Shown here piece after piece: positions 6,200 to 61,803 of a stretch of 64,000 nt of DNA (the first letter of the stretch is position 1; each line of letters opens with the position of its first letter). The notes under the pieces were generated by a model. It searched no databases. It saw only the letters and a list, made by a program, of their open reading frames with translations, and had not been told where the DNA came from. Origin of the DNA: Candidatus Pacearchaeota archaeon (GTDB lineage Archaea > Nanobdellota > Nanobdellia > Pacearchaeales > GW2011-AR1); the NCBI GenBank assembly GCA_016866955.1, contig VGKT01000001.1, positions 66,556 to 130,555 on the forward strand, read 5' to 3'. The position numbers and the translations under genes were made by a program.

Positions 6200-8931
6200 T
6201 ATGCTGTATTGAGCCTCTTATCTGGGAATGTTGTTTCAAGATAAGAATGATTACTTTGAATATGATTTGGATACTTAATTTCCCATATTTTGATTGGTCC
6301 TGCGAATGCCCCTCCTCGGATCCCTCCATATACTTCATCGTGTAAGAAAGAACCTTGTAATAAAGTAGGATTTTGCGCTCGAATAGATGCAATCACCGCA
6401 TCTTCTTGTTCGTGAACAAGTGTAAATTCAGGAACTTCTTGATTGAAAAGATACAAATGGGCAATATTTGAATGTATTACTTTTGGTGAAAGATAAAGTG
6501 CTGCCCCTCCTGCTTGTATTTGGGGTTGCCCGTTTTCACTTGTTAAACGAGGATAAACAAAAACTCCTGCTTCAATGCCTGTTTTAAAATCAAGAAGCTC
6601 CTTATTTTGATATGCGTATCGTAAAGGTATTGTAAGTTTTTTATTCTTGTAGACTATAATTGCTTGAGGCTGTACAACCAACGTATTATTTGTATTAAAT
6701 CCAAGAATAATTCCCCCTATTCCTGCTGAACCTTCAGGCAAGAATACCTCTGTTCCGTTAAGGGCATACGTTATGTCCTGATCAAGTGAAAATCCCCCTG
6801 AATAAAGGAAGAGTGTAGCATTTTTTGTCTGACTGAGCGTTTGTTGTCTAATTAATGATGGAATATAACTTCGACGATCGTAAGTAACTCCGGAACCGAT
6901 TGAAGAGAATGCCCCATATTTACCAATATCAGTAGAATCAATAAGTAAATGTGTTGCTTTATGCGTTTTGAAATACTGGAATAATGCTTCGGAGCTTCCT
7001 CCTGTTAAAGCTAACCGCCCCATTAAATGATTCCAATAGCCATAAGAGTTACCCCCATCGAGAATCGTTGCTCGCTTTCCGATAGACTGCACCCAATATC
7101 CGTAATCCCACCAATGTGCAAATACTGCATTTTCAGGAGTATTTTCTCGTACCCAAGACATTGCCTGTTGCCATTGTTGAGTATATGCAGAAGGCCCAAA
7201 ACTTTTTGCAGTACAATACGATTCTTTGAAAAAACTTGCGCTAGAAGATCCTGCACAGATATTGCCTGCTAAAATGCCGCTTCCTCCTGCTAAGAAACCA
7301 AGATAGAGCAAGATAATTCCTAACCCATAGGCTGTCCAAGTAAGATAACGAGAAGAAGTTTTTGATTTTAGATAGAGTGAAAAACAAAAATACCATGAAA
7401 GCATAGCTGCTGCAGGAACAAGGACCATAATAGTACGGACGCTTCCTCGAGCTGAAACAACACTGAAGAAAAAGAGAGAAAGCAAGAATAAATAGCCAAA
7501 GTCTAATTTTCCTTTCTCTCCTTTGAAATAATAATATCCAAAAACGGTTATTACTGCTATAAATCCTGATGCATAAAACAATAAGCTAAATGTATTTGTT
7601 CCATTTAAGAGACTTGAAGGGTTATATCGACTAAAGATAATTGCAAGTAAAAAATAGGCAAAGGCGAGCGTTTTTACAATTCTTGTTTTTGAATCCTCGG
7701 TGTTAAATAATGAATATACCAGTGCTACTGCTCCCCCCATAAAAATGAAGAAATAAAGTTTTCCAAAACTACCTACCCATTCGGTAAAGAAAGGTTGACG
7801 ATTTTCTGCAACCGTTACTCCGAACCTATCGACGATTGGTGAAACCAATGCATTTTTTATATTAATCATCTGATTGATAACTTGTTCAAATCCTAAAATG
7901 CCAATCGCTCCAACGAAGCCAAGAATAAGAACAATAAAGAGGGCGTAGAGCTGTATGGAAATTTTGTCAGAGTAAGGTAATGATATTTTTATCTTTTCTT
8001 TAAGAATATATTCTACACACATCATCCCCAAAAGTCCATAGGCTAATCCGGTAATTGGAGAAATAACTAAACCAAAAAAAGAATAACGATTGGTAGTAAA
8101 AAGAATTCCAATTGTTGTTAAAATAATCCAACAAGCATACATAAGTTTATTTTCATTACATATAGGATTATAGAGGAACATAAGAGTGCAGGCAATTGAG
8201 AGAGTAACAAAGATGTATGCAAATCCTCCCCAAGCATTCGCCATAGCGATAGTACCTATAATTGCAATAGCGCAGAAAATAATTTTTCTCTTTGAGTTAG
8301 TTGCATTCCAAGCACCTACGAATCCCCAAAAAGCAAGAAACATGAATAAGAACCCTATTGATTCTTTTTCAGGAATACCTGCGATCGTACGAGGAAGTAA
8401 TGCTGAAATAATTGTGATAAATGTTGAGGCAAATAATGCGATGAGAAGTGCATATCGTTCGCCCATTTTTACTTTAAAAATTTCATAAGTCATACAGAAA
8501 AAAGCCCCTACTGTGAGAACAAACATGCCTGCTGGAAAGAGTACTGCAGAATGAGTTACTGATTCTGTCATACCAAAGAAAGCGAGAAAATGGTGGAACC
8601 AAGCAATCATATAAGGGAGAAGCAAAAGTTCTTTTGAAGTATCGAATCCGAGTGGGACATATCTCATAACATCTTGAGCAAATAGGGATCCGTTTGCAAC
8701 GATATGCTCTGCCCAACGTAAGAATAAAAAGGGGTCTAAATCAGGACCAAGTGCCCAACCCCCCGTAGTGATATCTTTTAGTAAAGGGAGATTACGGGTA
8801 CGAAGCCAAAAAGCGAAATACATAAGGAATGCAAGTGCTCCATACACCCAAAAATGCGTTTTTGTCTTTAAAGAAGTATACACTGCACGTAACCGTTGCT
8901 GTGCGAGTTGTGTATCGTCCCGACTTGACAT
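6199..8931 (-). CDS. aglB: Archaeal oligosaccharyltransferase AglB (STT3 family)
   Basis: 910 aa with a multi-TM N-terminal domain and a soluble C-terminal domain. It contains the catalytic WWDYGYW motif (AHWWDYGYWVQSIG). Confidence 0.9.
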   Translation of the reverse strand: MSSRDDTQLAQQRLRAVYTSLKTKTHFWVYGALAFLMYFAFWLRTRNLPLLKDITTGGWALGPDLDPFLFLRWAEHIVANGSLFAQDVMRYVPLGFDTSKELLLLPYMIAWFHHFLAFFGMTESVTHSAVLFPAGMFVLTVGAFFCMTYEIFKVKMGERYALLIALFASTFITIISALLPRTIAGIPEKESIGFLFMFLAFWGFVGAWNATNSKRKIIFCAIAIIGTIAMANAWGGFAYIFVTLSIACTLMFLYNPICNENKLMYACWIILTTIGILFTTNRYSFFGLVISPITGLAYGLLGMMCVEYILKEKIKISLPYSDKISIQLYALFIVLILGFVGAIGILGFEQVINQMINIKNALVSPIVDRFGVTVAENRQPFFTEWVGSFGKLYFFIFMGGAVALVYSLFNTEDSKTRIVKTLAFAYFLLAIIFSRYNPSSLLNGTNTFSLLFYASGFIAVITVFGYYYFKGEKGKLDFGYLFLLSLFFFSVVSARGSVRTIMVLVPAAAMLSWYFCFSLYLKSKTSSRYLTWTAYGLGIILLYLGFLAGGSGILAGNICAGSSSASFFKESYCTAKSFGPSAYTQQWQQAMSWVRENTPENAVFAHWWDYGYWVQSIGKRATILDGGNSYGYWNHLMGRLALTGGSSEALFQYFKTHKATHLLIDSTDIGKYGAFSSIGSGVTYDRRSYIPSLIRQQTLSQTKNATLFLYSGGFSLDQDITYALNGTEVFLPEGSAGIGGIILGFNTNNTLVVQPQAIIVYKNKKLTIPLRYAYQNKELLDFKTGIEAGVFVYPRLTSENGQPQIQAGGAALYLSPKVIHSNIAHLYLFNQEVPEFTLVHEQEDAVIASIRAQNPTLLQGSFLHDEVYGGIRGGAFAGPIKIWEIKYPNHIQSNHSYLETTFPDKRLNTA

Positions 8932-56664: not shown

Positions 56665-58887
56665 ATGCCTAAAAGAGTGAAAAAGTATCTGCTTATTTCG
56701 CATATTCAAATTTTTTTACTTCTCTCATTGTCAATTACTATCCCTGGATTAGTTTCTGCGACTTCGACAACACCGACGGGAACAGGATTTTCAGAATGGG
56801 TAAGAAGAATTGCAAGCGGTAATGCATTACAGGGGTCAAGCGCCGTAACTATTCAAGCAGGAGCAAGCGTTCCAGCAGGCACGTACTCTTCAGGTACTTT
56901 TAATGTAAATGGCCAATTATTTTCAGCTACACCAACAAACCCTCTTGCTGTTGTAGAATCAAGCGCAGGAACTACCGTTGCAAGTGGAGGACTACCAATT
57001 CAAGGTGCTCCTGCTGCCCCTTCTGTTCCAGGACAAATAACTGCTGATACTGCAATCACCAAGGTGGCTACACCTGGAGCAGCTGCGGGAAGCGCACTCA
57101 TCCAAGGATTATTTTGGGGAGTAGCATTATATGCAGGGATTAAAATGTTAGGCGGATTATTTGGTGCTGGGGAGAAGACTACAAATGCGCTTGCAAATGC
57201 TGCGCTTGTTGGAGGAATAGGGGGTGGAGCGGTTAAGGCGGCTATTTTGTCTTTTAGACCTGAAACAACGGCTGCTTCAAAAGTCAACTTCTTAGGCGGT
57301 TCATTCACGCCCGGACAACTGGGCTTTGGAGCGGGGGTGGCGATTGCAGTGATTGTGTTCTTGGTTATGTATAAAGATACGAAGACAAAAATAGTCAATT
57401 ATCAGTGTTTACCTTGGGAACCTGCATTGGGTGGAGCGAACTGTGGAGAGTGTAATAAGAATCCGTTACAACCTTGTTCTGAATATCGCTGTAAATCATT
57501 GGGACAGGCATGTGAGTTAGTGAATCCAGGGACAGATGCTGAGAAATGTATTTGGAAGAGTAAGAATGACGTGACCTCGCCGACTATTACTCCGTGGGAA
57601 GAAGCATTAAAACCAACTGGATTACGCTATGTTCCTTTAGAATCTCGTCCAAATGCCCGTGGAACGCGTATCGTGAGTGCAAATGGGGATTGCTTGGATG
57701 CGTTTACCCCTCTCGAATTTGGTATTACGACGAATGAACAAGCCCAATGTAAACTTGACTTCAAGAATGCTAATTACAGTGCAATGCAGTTCCTCTTTGG
57801 GGGAAGCAATTACTATGTGACCAATCATACTCAGAAAATGAAATTGCCTTCCGCAACAGCAGGTGATGGTATTGTCTTACAGAATGACGGCACCTTTGAT
57901 TTGTATGTGAAGTGTCAAGATGCGAATGGGAACGTAAATGAAGATGTATATTTGATTGAATATTGTGTGAAGAAAGGTCCAGATACAACTCCTCCGGTGA
58001 TTGTAGATACATCTATTCCTTCAGGAAGTCCGGTACGATTTGGAGCGGACGCCGTACCACTTGAGGTGTATATCCAAGAACCAGCACAGTGTAAATGGAG
58101 TCGGATGAGTAAACCGTATGATGATATGGAACATCTCTTTACTTGTGCGACTTCACCTACTCAATTAAATGGTGATTTAAGTTATACCTGTACGGGCAAT
58201 CTTACCGGCATCAAAGATAGAGCAGACAATCAATTTTATTTCAGATGTCAAGATTTAAGCAATAACACGATGGTGCAAAGTTATCCGTTTGTATTGAAAG
58301 GAAGTCAACCATTGACTCTCCTTGAAACGAGCCCGAATGGAACGTTATATGGTGCAACAACGACGGTACCTGTGACGCTCGCTATTAAAACTGATGATGG
58401 AGCAGAAGCAGGAAAAGCAACTTGTTATTACAGCGCTCCAACTACTTTAGGAGAACCTATCAAGTTTTTCTCTACCGAAAGCTTTACGCATAGTCAACAA
58501 GTTGATGTAGGAGCAGGATTCCATCAATATTCCCTATTCTGTGTTGATGCAGGAGGAAATACGGCAAACCGTACGATTAACTTTACGATGAACATTGATC
58601 AACAAGCTCCGCGAGTCACGCGCGTGTATCGTGAAGAAGCATTAAAGATTGTGACTGATGAAGCTGCGGAATGTGCTTACTCATTGAACAGTTGTAATTT
58701 TGATTTAGATGACGGTATTAAGTTACAATATAGCAAACCAGATGTGCAAAATCAACATTTCGTTGATTGGAAATCAAGCTCGACGTATTATGTTAAGTGT
58801 GTAGACAAGTATGGCAATCAACCTGACCCTGTAGAATGTTCTGTGGTCGTTAGTCCGAAGCAATTTTTGAATGCAACGAATAACTAA
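56665..58887 (+). CDS. Membrane protein paralogous to the C-terminal half of the giant protein (Gly/Ala-rich TM region plus Ig-like repeat domain)
   Basis: YQCLPWEPALGGANCGECN...CSEYRCKSLGQACELVN and LYVKCQDANGNVNEDVYLIEYCVKKGPDTTPPVIV match the giant protein segment by segment. The ATG lies 21 nt after TTTATATA (56636-56643). Confidence 0.65.
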   Translation: MPKRVKKYLLISHIQIFLLLSLSITIPGLVSATSTTPTGTGFSEWVRRIASGNALQGSSAVTIQAGASVPAGTYSSGTFNVNGQLFSATPTNPLAVVESSAGTTVASGGLPIQGAPAAPSVPGQITADTAITKVATPGAAAGSALIQGLFWGVALYAGIKMLGGLFGAGEKTTNALANAALVGGIGGGAVKAAILSFRPETTAASKVNFLGGSFTPGQLGFGAGVAIAVIVFLVMYKDTKTKIVNYQCLPWEPALGGANCGECNKNPLQPCSEYRCKSLGQACELVNPGTDAEKCIWKSKNDVTSPTITPWEEALKPTGLRYVPLESRPNARGTRIVSANGDCLDAFTPLEFGITTNEQAQCKLDFKNANYSAMQFLFGGSNYYVTNHTQKMKLPSATAGDGIVLQNDGTFDLYVKCQDANGNVNEDVYLIEYCVKKGPDTTPPVIVDTSIPSGSPVRFGADAVPLEVYIQEPAQCKWSRMSKPYDDMEHLFTCATSPTQLNGDLSYTCTGNLTGIKDRADNQFYFRCQDLSNNTMVQSYPFVLKGSQPLTLLETSPNGTLYGATTTVPVTLAIKTDDGAEAGKATCYYSAPTTLGEPIKFFSTESFTHSQQVDVGAGFHQYSLFCVDAGGNTANRTINFTMNIDQQAPRVTRVYREEALKIVTDEAAECAYSLNSCNFDLDDGIKLQYSKPDVQNQHFVDWKSSSTYYVKCVDKYGNQPDPVECSVVVSPKQFLNATNN

Positions 58888-58905: not shown

Positions 58906-59376
58906 TTACGATTCAATATGCTTCTTTAACGCCTGGAATGAAGGCAATCCCAGTTCATATCGTTGATTGTCAGTAATCGTGCTTTTTTCTGTTGGCCATT
59001 GTTTTAAAATACCTGCTTTGGTACGATATGCTTGTGTACCATATATTTGTTTTTTCTTTCTTAACATTAAAGATTTATCGATAAGTTGTGCTTTCAAATG
59101 AACATGTTTACGATATCCTTTTTTCCGAGCATTATATTCATGAATTTGTGCTTGTTTGTTATCTTGGACGTTCATTGCATGATGCAGGATAAGAGCGGTA
59201 ATATAATGCTCTTTAGCTGAAAGAAATTTTCTATGCAATACTACTCTCTTCAGTTCTTGAATAACTCTTCGGTGCTTTTCATAAAACTCTGCATCGGTAT
59301 ATTTCTGTTCCCCATTTTTGATGAGATGTTGATCTCTACGGTAAAGGGATTCAAAGGACGTAGGTGATTGAGACAT
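58906..59376 (-). CDS. Hypothetical all-alpha protein, last gene of the ATP-grasp operon
   Basis: 156-aa ORF starting 10 nt after the preceding gene. The C-terminal pattern KQIYGTQAY...QRYELGLPS reminds me of an uncharacterised bacterial family (unverified). Confidence 0.35.
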   Translation of the reverse strand: MSQSPTSFESLYRRDQHLIKNGEQKYTDAEFYEKHRRVIQELKRVVLHRKFLSAKEHYITALILHHAMNVQDNKQAQIHEYNARKKGYRKHVHLKAQLIDKSLMLRKKKQIYGTQAYRTKAGILKQWPTEKSTITDNQRYELGLPSFQALKKHIES

Positions 59377-59386
59377 TAGAGATACC

Positions 59387-60007
59387 TCATTTTTCTACAG
59401 AACAGGGAGAGACCTGTTCAAGTTCACATACATAATCAAAATGGGTGTCAAAGAGATCGTTTTCTGCATACTCTACGGTACCTATCCCATTATTATAGAA
59501 CGTGCCTTTCTTTGGTTTGAATAGAATAGAGACTACCTGGTCTTTGAGTTTTTGAGAAAGTAACAATCCAGCAGGAGTAATCGTGAGATCATTCAAGATT
59601 ATCTTCTTTTTTGAAGCATGTATATTCCCCAGTATGGCACATGTTCGTGTAGTAGACAATGATTTCTGAATTGTGTCTGCAAGCGACCTTTCTAACGCTT
59701 CCTGATTTTGTACCTCATTCGGTGCGATATAGAGAACTCTTACATTTTTTGGTAATGCTTTAATCAATTGTATATAGGCAGGACTCAAAAGTCCACTTGT
59801 ACCTATCTTCTGAGCATAAGAAAGCATGTCCTTTAAAGCTATTTCTTGAAATTCTTGAGGTATTTCTAAACAGACGGTAAAATCTTCTTTTTGAGCTAAC
59901 TCTTGAAATAAATGAGAGAGAAGAGCAGGTATTTCATTTGTTCCATGCATTTCTCCGAAAAGAATGAGTTTCTTTCCCCTTATGAATGAAAGCAGTTTCT
60001 CAGCCAT
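59387..60007 (-). CDS. EreA/ChaN-like (Tiki superfamily) putative hydrolase
   Basis: LILFGEMHGTNEIP...FTVCLEIP...ILGNIHA pattern, similar to erythromycin-esterase/ChaN-type GE.HG motifs. At 206 aa it is much shorter than EreA. Confidence 0.4.
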   Translation of the reverse strand: MAEKLLSFIRGKKLILFGEMHGTNEIPALLSHLFQELAQKEDFTVCLEIPQEFQEIALKDMLSYAQKIGTSGLLSPAYIQLIKALPKNVRVLYIAPNEVQNQEALERSLADTIQKSLSTTRTCAILGNIHASKKKIILNDLTITPAGLLLSQKLKDQVVSILFKPKKGTFYNNGIGTVEYAENDLFDTHFDYVCELEQVSPCSVEK

Positions 60008-60008
60008 G

Positions 60009-60965
60009 TTATTCTACTAAATTATTAGTTACCTCACTAGTTACATTGTAGCCTGACTGCTCTTCAAGCCATAACCATTGCCCATTAGGATTAAGTTCTA
60101 AGAAATAATATTTTTTATCTTTTGAATAGATAAAATCAAAGGCACCGAAATGTAACCCATAGTGCATAAGCATAGTGGCACAAAACTCTTTTACTTTTTT
60201 AGGAAGTTCCACTTGTTGGTACGTAACATTTTCAAAATCGTACCGCCGATAATCAATTTTTGATCTTTCAGAGTCTTGAGAATGAATCGCAATTCCCGTT
60301 GTAGTGGTATCTGTTGCAATTATTCTGATTTCAAATTCTTTTTCAATATATTCTTGAAATAACGATGGGTGACTGGAAACAAGTGCAGAATTTCTCATTT
60401 GTGCTTCAGTCACTTTATTAGTATAAACCACCTTATTTCCTTCCGGGGTCCTAATTACTGCCCCTTTCTGTAACTTAAAGCAGATATTTCCCATATGTTC
60501 TCTATAAAAATTTTCTAAATCTGCAGGATCAGTAGTTACAATCGTATCTGGAACAAGCATCCCTCTTTCTAATGCGAATTTAATTTGATGGAGTTTACTA
60601 TTTGCATAAAAATGATTTTGGGGGCGATTTACCACTTTTCCACTATGGGTCATTAATAAACCATCCCACGTCTTCTCACATTCATCAGTTACCAAATCTT
60701 GTAAATCTTTAGGTTGTCCTTTATTTCTATCAGGAATCATCACTCGTCGATTCCAAATATTCCATGAAGAGTCTAATTCGATAGACCTCTGCTTGTCAGC
60801 GAGAGTATAACTTCCATTTTTAGAATAAAATTTTATTTTATAATCGCTTAATAAATTTTCGGTAACAACTGTGAAATTTTCTACGCCTCTCCGATCTAAC
60901 TCCCGTCGTACTGATAAAGCGTGAGGATCATCAGAATAAGTGAGAATTAAAACTTTCTTTTTCAT
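60009..60965 (-). CDS. ATP-grasp ligase of the microviridin MdnC/MvdD (graspetide maturase) type
   Basis: 318 aa. VLILTYSDDPHALSVRRELDRRG...YKIKFYS...WNRR at the N-terminus and FLELNPNGQWLWLE at the C-terminus parallel MdnC as I remember it (VLIVTFSRDNES..., FLEINPVGEFFWLE). Confidence 0.65.
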   Translation of the reverse strand: MKKKVLILTYSDDPHALSVRRELDRRGVENFTVVTENLLSDYKIKFYSKNGSYTLADKQRSIELDSSWNIWNRRVMIPDRNKGQPKDLQDLVTDECEKTWDGLLMTHSGKVVNRPQNHFYANSKLHQIKFALERGMLVPDTIVTTDPADLENFYREHMGNICFKLQKGAVIRTPEGNKVVYTNKVTEAQMRNSALVSSHPSLFQEYIEKEFEIRIIATDTTTTGIAIHSQDSERSKIDYRRYDFENVTYQQVELPKKVKEFCATMLMHYGLHFGAFDFIYSKDKKYYFLELNPNGQWLWLEEQSGYNVTSEVTNNLVE

Positions 60966-60983
60966 TAGTTTTAATGAACTTTT

Positions 60984-61178
60984 TTACCAGTCATCTATTG
61001 TTGGAATACCGCGAAAAGTACAAATCGAACATGTTAGTCCTGCAGTTACATTTGGTTGCTTTTCTAAATACATTTCGGCAAAAGCGGTGTAGTGGGCAGA
61101 AGAGGCACGATATTGATTTGTTCCTAAATTCCCAAGTCTGTTTCCTCCCTCCACTACCTCTTCTAAGGCTTTGTCCAT
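60984..61178 (-). CDS. Candidate graspetide precursor peptide (64 aa)
   Basis: MDKALEEVVEGGNRLGNLGTNQYRASSAHYTAFAEMYLEKQPNVTAGLTCSICTFRGIPTIDDW. It lies 18 nt upstream of the ATP-grasp gene on the same strand and has its own TATA box 21 nt upstream. Confidence 0.4.
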   Translation of the reverse strand: MDKALEEVVEGGNRLGNLGTNQYRASSAHYTAFAEMYLEKQPNVTAGLTCSICTFRGIPTIDDW

Positions 61179-61199
61179 GATTGATCTATCGATTCAAAC

Positions 61200-61207
61200 T
61201 ATTTAAG
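61200..61207 (-). promoter_or_regulatory. TATA box of the precursor/ATP-grasp operon (leaderless)
   Basis: The minus strand reads CTTAAATA(G). The precursor ATG lies 21 nt downstream. Confidence 0.45.
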
Positions 61208-61635: not shown

Positions 61636-61803
61636 TTACAAATCCTTTGCTTGCAATGTGCGCCGACCGTTGAGTTTTGCGCGCGTTGCTGCTTTGTCTA
61701 AAAGTTCGAGTACTTTACTATTGAGTGCATCGGCAACTTCAGTGGACACTTGTAAATCAGGAACTGCTGCTTTAATTTTACTTTTTACGATCAGCTCGAC
61801 CAT
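61636..61803 (-). CDS. Small histone-fold-like protein (55 aa)
   Basis: Not in the ORF track. Manual translation gives MVELIVKSKIKAAVPDLQVSTEVADALNSKVLELLDKAATRAKLNGRRTLQAKDL. The ending resembles histone-fold/DUF1931-type proteins. It overlaps the lysS 3' end by 26 nt. Confidence 0.4.
   Translation of the reverse strand: MVELIVKSKIKAAVPDLQVSTEVADALNSKVLELLDKAATRAKLNGRRTLQAKDL

Follow-up and report, generated by a model that had tools for sequence, protein, structure and literature searches.

A probable graspetide operon in a Pacearchaeota archaeon and a related three-gene cassette across DPANN archaea

Introduction

The question raised by the locus studied here is whether an archaeon of the DPANN group makes a graspetide, that is, a peptide that is made on the ribosome and modified after translation (RiPP), closed by side-chain macrolactones. 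The locus is a four-gene operon at positions 58,906 to 61,207 of a 64,000-nt stretch of contig VGKT01000001.1 from a Candidatus Pacearchaeota archaeon (assembly GCA_016866955.1); we call this whole stretch the window and count its positions from its first letter. To our knowledge, characterised archaeal RiPPs are very few and comprise essentially only the haloarchaeal lanthipeptides. In its main text, an antiSMASH survey that covered 11,644 archaeal genomes leaves graspetides unmentioned (PMC12144867), and two archaeal graspetide groups have been predicted earlier, group 33 in Methanolobus and group 36 in Pyrobaculum/Thermoproteota, with precursors unrelated to the one described here (PMC13097080). 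An initial annotation of the window, made from its letters alone, had suggested a graspetide operon and had called an archaeal example unusual; given these predicted groups, such an example is rare but not unprecedented.

By combining profile and structure searches with a comparison of homologous loci, we arrive at the reading that the operon is a chromosomal graspetide operon of a Pacearchaeota (DPANN) archaeon, to which we assign a probability of about 0.8. Our comparisons make it a well-supported proposal that the underlying cassette is a new DPANN-wide group within the known graspetide class. The features on which the argument rests are the following, all on the minus strand of the window.

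60984-61178, minus strand: predicted precursor peptide gene, leader then core (64-aa open reading frame)
60009-60965, minus strand: putative graspetide ATP-grasp macrocyclase gene (318 aa; profile, PDB sequence and fold matches)
59387-60007, minus strand: gene 3, putative mini Tiki/TraB/EreA/ChaN-superfamily hydrolase (206 aa)
58906-59376, minus strand: gene 4, putative divergent DUF6624-family protein (156 aa)
61200-61207, minus strand: predicted archaeal TATA box, CTTAAATA, of a leaderless transcript (sequence; conserved spacing)
61062-61082, minus strand: predicted leader recognition motif F33-A-E-M-Y-L-E39, followed by K-Q-P (alignment conservation)
60987-61037, minus strand: predicted core peptide L48-TCSICTFRGIPTIDD-W64 (counts over 57 non-redundant precursors)

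Results

The ATP-grasp ligase

The assignment of the 318-aa protein as a RiPP-type ATP-grasp macrocyclase, and not as a RimK or GshB enzyme, is supported by NCBIfam, Pfam, PDB sequence and fold matches that agree with one another and with the initial annotation. Among the NCBIfam profile hidden Markov models, those of RiPP maturases match the protein over its full length, namely MvdC (TIGR04185; E = 1.1e-56, 192.3 bits against an equivalog cut-off of 425), SAV_5884 (TIGR04187; 8.1e-56, 189.5 bits, cut-off 350) and MvdD (TIGR04184; 1.4e-49, 169.1 bits, equivalog cut-off 475), and grasp-with-spasm follows (TIGR04192; 3.3e-30, 105.5 bits, cut-off 230). In contrast, the RimK family model reaches only 1.8e-10 (TIGR00768; 40.6 bits, cut-off 143.4) and that of glutathione synthase (GshB) 8.5e-05 (21.5 bits, cut-off 272). 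The maturase models lead that of RimK by about 150 bits, and no clustering with RimK or GshB was seen. Pfam likewise finds the MvdD pre-ATP-grasp domain (PF21068) at 34.4 bits, over its cut-off of 27, and the RimK domain at 24.2 bits, barely over the domain cut-off of 21.

Searched against PDB sequences, the ligase finds AMdnB best (1e-38), followed by MdnB, MdnC and CdnC, with PruB also among the matches. Its AlphaFold2 model, with a predicted local distance difference test score (pLDDT) of 89, has graspetide ligases as all of its top 32 PDB folds at template modelling (TM) scores of 0.66-0.86 (CdnC, MdnC, AMdnB, MdnB, PruB, PsnB), against about 0.62 for RimK, LysX and ArgX. The Mg/ATP motif residues D277, E290 and N292 (FGAFDF, FLELNPNGQW) are invariant in an alignment of 21 homologues and align with those of AMdnB. 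Since all NCBIfam scores stay under their curated cut-offs, the ligase would belong to the RiPP-maturase lineage but outside every named subfamily (microviridin MvdC/MvdD, SAV_5884, grasp-with-spasm), so that the earlier label 'MdnC/MvdD-type' holds for the lineage and not for any curated subfamily. The protein is 100% identical to FJZ22_00815 of a Candidatus Pacearchaeota metagenome-assembled genome (MAG).

A conserved precursor with leader and core

Directly upstream of the ligase gene lies the 64-aa open reading frame (ORF), which by its conservation is a genuine, conserved precursor protein. A two-sequence profile searched against 1.84 billion representatives gave 51 matches, of which about 46, counted as clusters at 50% identity, are true precursors of 55-101 aa; four long proteins (713-1562 aa) with neither motif were rejected as false positives. 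A homologue sits directly 5' of the ligase in essentially every locus of the DPANN ligase clade with sufficient flank (about 25 loci), and downstream of it instead in L011, where L-numbers label the loci of ATP-grasp homologues that we compared with the window operon. Homologous precursor/ligase pairs thus exist in other genomes, non-conservation of the small ORF was not seen, and its proposed identity as the precursor gains from its conservation beside the ligase.

The leader stretch HYTAFAEMYL and the core TAGLTCSICTFRGIPTIDDW, also given as LTCSICTFRGIPTIDDW and without Lys, both read as first claimed. Across homologues the leader motif F-A/S-E-M/Q-Y-L-E-x-P is nearly invariant; in the precursor alignment E39 never varies, and the residues F33, E35 and the subsequent Pro hardly do. 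The motif has an h-h-x-x-h-h pattern and, by analogy with the PFFARFL motif of microviridin, may be what the ligase binds. The core follows the consensus [ST]x[ST]x-C-T-aromatic-[RK]-G-[IV]-P-T-[IV]-D-D-aromatic. Counted over 57 non-redundant precursors with the conserved Cys as position 0, the Cys itself, Ser/Thr at -2 and Asp-Asp at +9/+10 are present in 57/57, Thr at +1 and Arg/Lys at +3 in 56/57 each, Pro at +6 in 55/57, Ser/Thr at -4 in 54/57 and an aromatic C-terminal residue in 51/57. The window core does contain the two Cys noted at the outset, but only the second, C53, is conserved, and in 32/57 precursors the position-0 Cys is the sole one. Over 17 pairwise comparisons of core codons, 92 differences are synonymous only and 108 change the residue, mostly by T/S, I/V and W/F swaps; because the changes are largely synonymous or conservative, we conclude that the precursor is under purifying selection as a protein.

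A few homologues vary this plan. Two independent variants (ASISTWRDVPTIDDW, PSASTFKGVPLLDDF), in L084 (6765-6977; identical in L085) and L096 (1757-1978), have Ser for the core Cys, the sole replacement of this residue among the variants seen, and L093 retains the Cys with Gly for the subsequent Thr. The Woesearchaeota locus L014 (2393-2617) keeps the leader motif (YAVQFFERPVYKG) with an unrelated Ser/Thr-rich core and is without the ChaN-like gene. In L006 (2093-2282) a frameshift splits the precursor between leader and core, through either a pseudogene or an assembly error. The 101-aa ORF of L013 (3684-3989, equal to P0170) has a single core preceded by two leader-like motifs, YKTFSEIFLEE and MFFSEQFFERP, and ends in a PDLDDI extension; short tails after the Asp-Asp also occur in several others (PDWY, PDMD, ADMLE, GD).

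A miniature hydrolase beside the ligase

Gene 3 lies 1 nt from the ligase gene, is translationally coupled to it and encodes 206 aa with no signal peptide. Its invariant residues in 16 orthologues are G18-E-x-H21-G-T-x-E25, E48 and G127-x-x-H130 (in the window, G18-E-M-H21 and G127-N-I-H130), and a pair of GX2H motifs enclosing a conserved Glu, as here, is what we take to be the signature of the Tiki/TraB-PrgY/erythromycin esterase/ChaN superfamily. The ChaN model PF04187 scores 20.8 bits over the N-terminal 55 residues only (cut-off 27.7) and gives weak matches in 16/16 orthologues (best 7.4e-07). No erythromycin-esterase Pfam match was found at E ≤ 1, and a profile search of PDB sequences with the gene 3 alignment gave chance matches only, none attributable to the superfamily. 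With its weak structural model, Foldseek ranks the B. cereus EreA-family structures 3B55, 2RAD and 2QGM best (E 4e-5 to 5e-4, TMq 0.55-0.60), HopBA1 and EreC also appearing, and NCBI names the protein 'erythromycin esterase family protein'. From the GX2H motifs, the recurrent weak PF04187 matches and the EreA-family folds, gene 3 is supported as a miniature hydrolase of the Tiki/TraB/EreA/ChaN superfamily, as its first description as 'EreA/ChaN-like' had implied; it is roughly half the size of EreA.

Nearly every DPANN locus has the gene next to that of the ligase, with L095, L098 and L100 carrying it on the opposite strand. The same kind of protein, with the motif GE.HG..EN, also stands beside the ligase in loci of candidate phyla radiation (CPR) bacteria (L024, L026, L057, L067, L075, L116, L149). 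Tiki/TraB peptidases and an EreA-like protein have been reported in graspetide loci, with leader cleavage, further modification and resistance as proposed roles (PMC8939145). PF04187 was not found in the accessible part of the supplements of PMC13097080.

A divergent DUF6624-like protein

The fourth protein, initially an unknown, appears from sequence to be a divergent member of the DUF6624 family. Its direct match to Pfam DUF6624 (PF20329) is sub-threshold (E = 0.01, 15.8 bits against a cut-off of 27), but in phmmer it matches (1.5e-8 to 6e-4) proteins whose genes adjoin other ATP-grasp genes (L099, L126, L133, L129, L101, L057), and these score 61-92 bits on the DUF6624 model, the L099 protein (phmmer 1.5e-8) reaching 88.7 bits. 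Gene 4 and the DUF6624 proteins have the motif KKQIYGTQ.Y in common. A tblastn search found no gene 4 homologues in 80 loci; the notion drawn from it, that gene 4 is unrelated to the cassette, was overturned by phmmer, Pfam and the co-occurrence of DUF6624 in PMC13097080. There, graspetide groups 18, 20, 23 and 42 are reported to contain DUF6624 with high frequency, and it is considered perhaps an undiscovered biosynthetic enzyme (Carter et al. 2026, PMC13097080).

In the Wolfebacteria locus L057 (3848-6441), ligase, ChaN-like and DUF6624 genes follow one another in the gene order of the window. DUF6624 genes lie immediately 3' of the ATP-grasp genes in the CPR-type loci L099, L101, L126, L129 and L133. 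All four genes of the operon would accordingly come from graspetide-associated families, with only the first three conserved across the DPANN clade.

Operon layout and promoter

The four minus-strand ORFs are separated, from precursor to gene 4, by 18, 1 and 10 nt, exactly as described before, and gene 4, 10 nt downstream of gene 3, is probably co-transcribed. The octamer CTTAAATA at 61207-61200 ends 21 nt ahead of the precursor ATG at 61178. In 11 orthologous DPANN loci, plus L084, a box of the form (aaag)TTTAAATA(gt) stands 21-24 nt 5' of the precursor ATG, and in the window itself TATA-like heptamers 5' of ORFs of at least 120 aa show a sharp peak 21-23 nt before the ATG (10/23 occurrences), in keeping with the claim that the octamer has the spacing typical of leaderless genes. 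Because the box is conserved in orthologues and the spacing peak is window-wide, the promoter reading amounts to more than chance, and we predict a leaderless mRNA that is driven by the TATA box 21 nt upstream and starts at the precursor ATG. L014 and L017 have a Shine-Dalgarno-like AGGAGG in place of the leaderless TATA arrangement.

The operon has housekeeping neighbours, namely Hjc, lysyl-tRNA synthetase (LysRS), ribosomal proteins and TruB. No acetyltransferase (GNAT) or transporter gene lies in or beside it, and no radical SAM gene lies in it. L084 has a radical SAM/SPASM gene (1467-2390, plus glycosyltransferases and an HPr-kinase-like gene; minus strand) about 4.5 kb upstream of its cassette and on the opposite strand.

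Distribution and origin of the cassette

Using the ligase as query, we scanned one genome per GTDB species and, separately, metagenomes. The species scan gave 17 loci at 40-79% identity, 16 of them DPANN (Pace-, Woese- and Nanoarchaeota, or simply 'archaeon') and one from Lutibacter, with the next matches bacterial and at most 34% identical; the metagenome scan added about 13 loci of the same clade. In the two scans together, bacterial relatives that do not nest in the clade stay at or below 35% identity. A neighbour-joining tree of 75 ligases places all DPANN sequences in a single clade with Lutibacter nested within, and the triad of precursor, ligase and hydrolase co-occurs in about 25 distinct loci. 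The GC content of the operon, 0.355 against 0.377 ± 0.043 in 1-kb windows, lies near the 25th percentile and within 0.5 standard deviations of the mean; the operon is not compositionally unusual, and the AT-richness from which horizontal acquisition had been suspected offers no such hint.

Recent acquisition is unsupported, given the ordinary GC content, the conserved archaeal promoter and the single DPANN clade, and the shared accessory genes and similar leader argue for relatedness to CPR cassettes. We suggest from these comparisons that the triad is an old DPANN-wide cassette, related to those of CPR bacteria and exported at least once to Bacteroidota. A viral origin was rejected, the best IMG/VR relative being only 32% identical; the PADLOC defence-system scan gave no matches, and the PHROGs scan a generic ATP-grasp match only, the best annotated 'S6 glutaminyl transferase'.

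Two loci outside the archaeal bins deserve description. In a 304-kb contig of a Lutibacter (Bacteroidota) MAG, L010 (3806-4960; L089 is the same sequence) holds a DPANN-type precursor and a ligase of 53% identity, without the ChaN-like gene and without an archaeal TATA box. The pair is flanked by ArsR-MerT/HMA genes and by a set of ThiF (E1), prokaryotic E2 and multiubiquitin genes with an HTH/M78 pair, and looks like an archaea-to-bacteria transfer into an accessory island. NCBI gives the L084 ligase (P0014) the source name 'Patescibacteria group bacterium', and the locus (6720-6770) carries aaagTTTAAATAgttt 22 nt before the precursor ATG, as in DPANN loci; its contig is probably mis-binned DPANN sequence.

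Discussion

Proposed product and biosynthesis

We propose that the 64-aa precursor would bind the ATP-grasp ligase through its leader helix F-A-E-M-Y-L-E, upon which the ligase would phosphorylate the side chains of the invariant D62 and D63. Such a course would follow graspetide ligases in general, which turn a side-chain carboxylate into an acyl phosphate and direct a nucleophile to it (PMC13097080). Because just two acids, D62 and D63, are invariant and there is no conserved Lys, we expect no more than two ester-type rings. The candidate ring donors are the Ser/Thr at -4, the Ser/Thr at -2 and the invariant C-T dyad; two rings would be closed with nucleophiles of this [ST]x[ST]x-C-T block, for which T54 with its neighbour 53, or S/T51, would be the likeliest donors, giving a nested hairpin around the loop aromatic-R/K-G-I-P-T-I. 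To judge from the core, the product most likely carries two Thr/Ser(/Cys)-to-Asp side-chain rings and, by analogy with graspetides already characterised, is most likely a protease-binding loop peptide or protease inhibitor. The cytoplasmic, co-translated Tiki/EreA/ChaN-like hydrolase would most likely remove the leader, and the DUF6624-like protein may act as an accessory of the kind that recurs in graspetide clusters.

The conserved Cys of the core invites a further thought. An intramolecular disulfide is excluded, because 32 of the 57 precursors have a single Cys. Graspetide ligases use hydroxyl, amine and, non-natively, thiol nucleophiles, and non-native thioesters have been reported (PMC13097080); no natural graspetide thioester is described in the literature that we searched. 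We regard it as chemically plausible, and on balance doubtful, that the core Cys is joined to an invariant Asp as a natural side-chain thioester. A thiolactone would then stand beside a Thr-Asp ester in a nested C/S-T...D-D bicyclic hairpin, and the product, if real, would be the first natural thioester graspetide.

Several observations weigh against the operon being a graspetide operon of this design. The ligase scores below each curated NCBIfam equivalog or subfamily cut-off, and the leader is without the N-terminal Pro of the published motif Phhx(1,2)h (PMC8939145). The cassette contains no transporter or immunity gene, which leaves export unexplained. Gene 3 has a sub-threshold Pfam match and a model of low confidence (AlphaFold2, pLDDT 61, from 3 sequences), and gene 4 no longer has the Asp in its family's Q-H-A-D motif and has no homologues in the flanks of the other DPANN loci examined. 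The chemistry as a whole, that is, the modification, the number of rings and the ring partners, is read from sequence.

In one rival explanation, the ATP-grasp enzyme acts on a non-RiPP substrate, for example in RimK-like protein tailing, and the small ORF encodes a conserved micro-protein that has nothing to do with it. The Pfam RimK domain over its cut-off (24.2 against 21 bits), the best PHROG annotation, 'S6 glutaminyl transferase', and the fact that modification of the precursor is itself deduced from its letters would all suit such an enzyme; yet the maturase models exceed RimK by some 150 bits, the fold reaches a TM score of about 0.8 with graspetide ligases and 0.62 with RimK, and the small ORF not only has a leader/core layout with invariant Asp-Asp and Ser/Thr but also travels with the ligase despite reordering (L011) and transfer to a bacterium (L010). 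We hold this explanation to be very improbable indeed. Only slightly better placed, and still quite improbable, is a recent horizontal acquisition of the operon from bacteria. Graspetide clusters are overwhelmingly bacterial, and the ChaN-like and DUF6624 genes of the operon are shared with CPR loci, with an identical gene order in L057, but the operon GC lies within 0.5 standard deviations of the window mean, the ligases of 16 DPANN species representatives and of the metagenomic loci form a single clade, the archaeal TATA/leaderless promoter is conserved in that clade, the flanks are housekeeping genes, and the one clear transfer runs in the opposite direction, into the Lutibacter island. An ancient exchange with CPR bacteria is possible.

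Within the graspetide reading itself, the role of gene 3 divides the evidence more evenly. EreA and EreC hydrolyse a macrolactone ester with a His/Glu/His set. Gene 3, in which H21, E48 and H130 are invariant, might by that token be an EreA-like esterase that opens macrolactone rings for self-immunity, proofreading or turnover instead of a leader peptidase; the NCBI name and the EreA-family proteins and EreC among the best folds of the predicted model point the same way, and modification or resistance has been raised for an EreA-like protein of gammaproteobacterial graspetide loci (PMC8939145). However, there is no Pfam erythromycin-esterase match and only a weak N-terminal ChaN match, the protein has half the length of EreA, and the 1-nt coupling to the ligase together with the lack of any other protease suits a maturation step better, whereas the Lutibacter copy without gene 3 is compatible with either role. 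We therefore consider the esterase somewhat unlikely and tentatively favour a leader peptidase, at a little under even odds, since the conserved triad offers no other hydrolase candidate and gene 3 is cytoplasmic and co-translated.

Comparison with known systems

The graspetide operon proposed here shares with the microviridin ligases MdnB/MdnC (AMdnB 7M4S; 5IG8; 5IG9) and the chryseoviridin ligase CdnC (7MGV) a common fold and arrangement of domains, with the pre-ATP-grasp domain as well as the catalytic D/E-x-N motifs, at sequence E values of 1e-38 to 2e-28 and TM scores of 0.78-0.86, and with microviridin a precursor directly upstream, a hydrophobic leader helix motif and a C-terminal core that ends in acidic and aromatic residues. 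Contrasting with these likenesses, the ligases are only 25-28% identical to that of the window, whose core is not TxKxPSDx(E/D)(D/E), and the operon has one ligase rather than two and an archaeal host, and lacks both a Lys that could form a lactam and any GNAT or ABC transporter gene. Plesiocin has the topology TTxxxxEE and is a nested bicyclic hairpin protease inhibitor. Its adjacent nucleophiles and adjacent acids around a loop (group 2, PsnB; 7DRM) resemble the C/S-T-x7-D-D arrangement of the window core, and PsnB matches the window ligase in fold (TM 0.72-0.79) at only 17-20% identity. Unlike plesiocin, the window core has a loop of 7 residues instead of 4, Asp for Glu, Cys for the first Thr, and is one core instead of a series of repeats.

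The closest non-archaeal relatives of the window ligase, at 30-35% identity, are those of CPR graspetide loci (Makarova et al. 2022, PMC8939145, Branches 1 and 2), whose hosts are ultra-small symbionts too; L024 is a listed Branch 1 member. These loci have the GE.HG..EN ChaN/Tiki-like gene beside the ligase, and several have DUF6624 as well. The Branch 1 core signature TxxxTx(6-10)Dx(1-4)D bears a general likeness to the DPANN core. The precursor-like ORF of the CPR locus L067 has a leader, PFAMRYMQQP, that resembles FAEMYLEKP, and L067 was the only locus among the bacterial relatives in which the core pattern was found, as a partial match. In contrast, the DPANN ligases form their own clade, with the core [ST]x[ST]xCT-x7-DD and its invariant Cys, an archaeal promoter and a leaderless transcript.

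A core closely alike by eye is that of graspetide group 27 (Carter et al. 2026, PMC13097080, Fig. S4; predicted only, n = 337; representative Candidatus Angelobacter), in which TATKCTVLANKFADGD, TKTVCTIGANHAKDGD and TETVCTFFNGSLDGD have TxTxCT, an Asp at about +9 and a second Asp 1-2 residues on. This likeness is one of core pattern, and group 27 is uncharacterised; it differs in being bacterial, in a leader with a GG cleavage motif, in DGD instead of DD, in several precursors per cluster and in having no accessory genes reported.

The accessible tables of PMC8939145 hold three archaeal ATP-grasp rows, two from archaeon GW2011_AR18 and one from Thaumarchaeota archaeon MY3, with no precursor assigned. 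Searched by core and leader strings and by DPANN names, the available portions of the supplementary tables of PMC8939145 and PMC13097080 contain no such precursor. Within the literature searched, DPANN and graspetides occur together only in PMC8939145, where DPANN appears merely in the reference list. The DPANN peptide family was thus not found described in that literature, whereas the ligase family, the RiPP class and both accessory families are already known.

Implications

A compact, complete graspetide cassette appears to be conserved over Pace-, Woese- and Nanoarchaeota. Because tiny genomes keep little that is dispensable and the core is almost invariant, a specific, selected target is implied. 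If the thioester reading is true, genome-reduced symbiotic archaea throughout DPANN would make such a peptide, most likely a protease inhibitor, with counterparts in kind among CPR bacteria, and it would be a candidate mediator of symbiont-host or symbiont-symbiont interaction. The cassette offers a directly testable candidate molecule for the dealings of DPANN archaea with hosts or competitors. It is a small system of three genes, open to expression in E. coli, and nature provides in it a case on which the use of thiols by a graspetide ligase can be tested. Two uncharacterised accessory families, mini Tiki/EreA-like and DUF6624, also tie the DPANN cassettes to those of CPR bacteria. With the chemistry a prediction, we see its interest for archaeal natural products and DPANN biology as moderate to high.

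Neighbouring genes

A plus-strand gene (56665-58887) that runs towards the operon, its stop codon just 18 nt from that of gene 4, encodes a 740-aa protein with an N-terminal hydrophobic anchor, Cys-rich repeats and no family match, in a region where the local GC content (0.45-0.48) is the maximum of the window. A linkage of this 740-aa secreted protein, of Hjc or of a 125-aa ORF to the cassette was rejected, as none of them lies near other cassettes. Between LysRS and Hjc, a 55-aa minus-strand ORF (61636-61803) overlaps the 3' end of LysRS by 26 nt; it has no Pfam match, and the gene calls of three independent assemblies include it.

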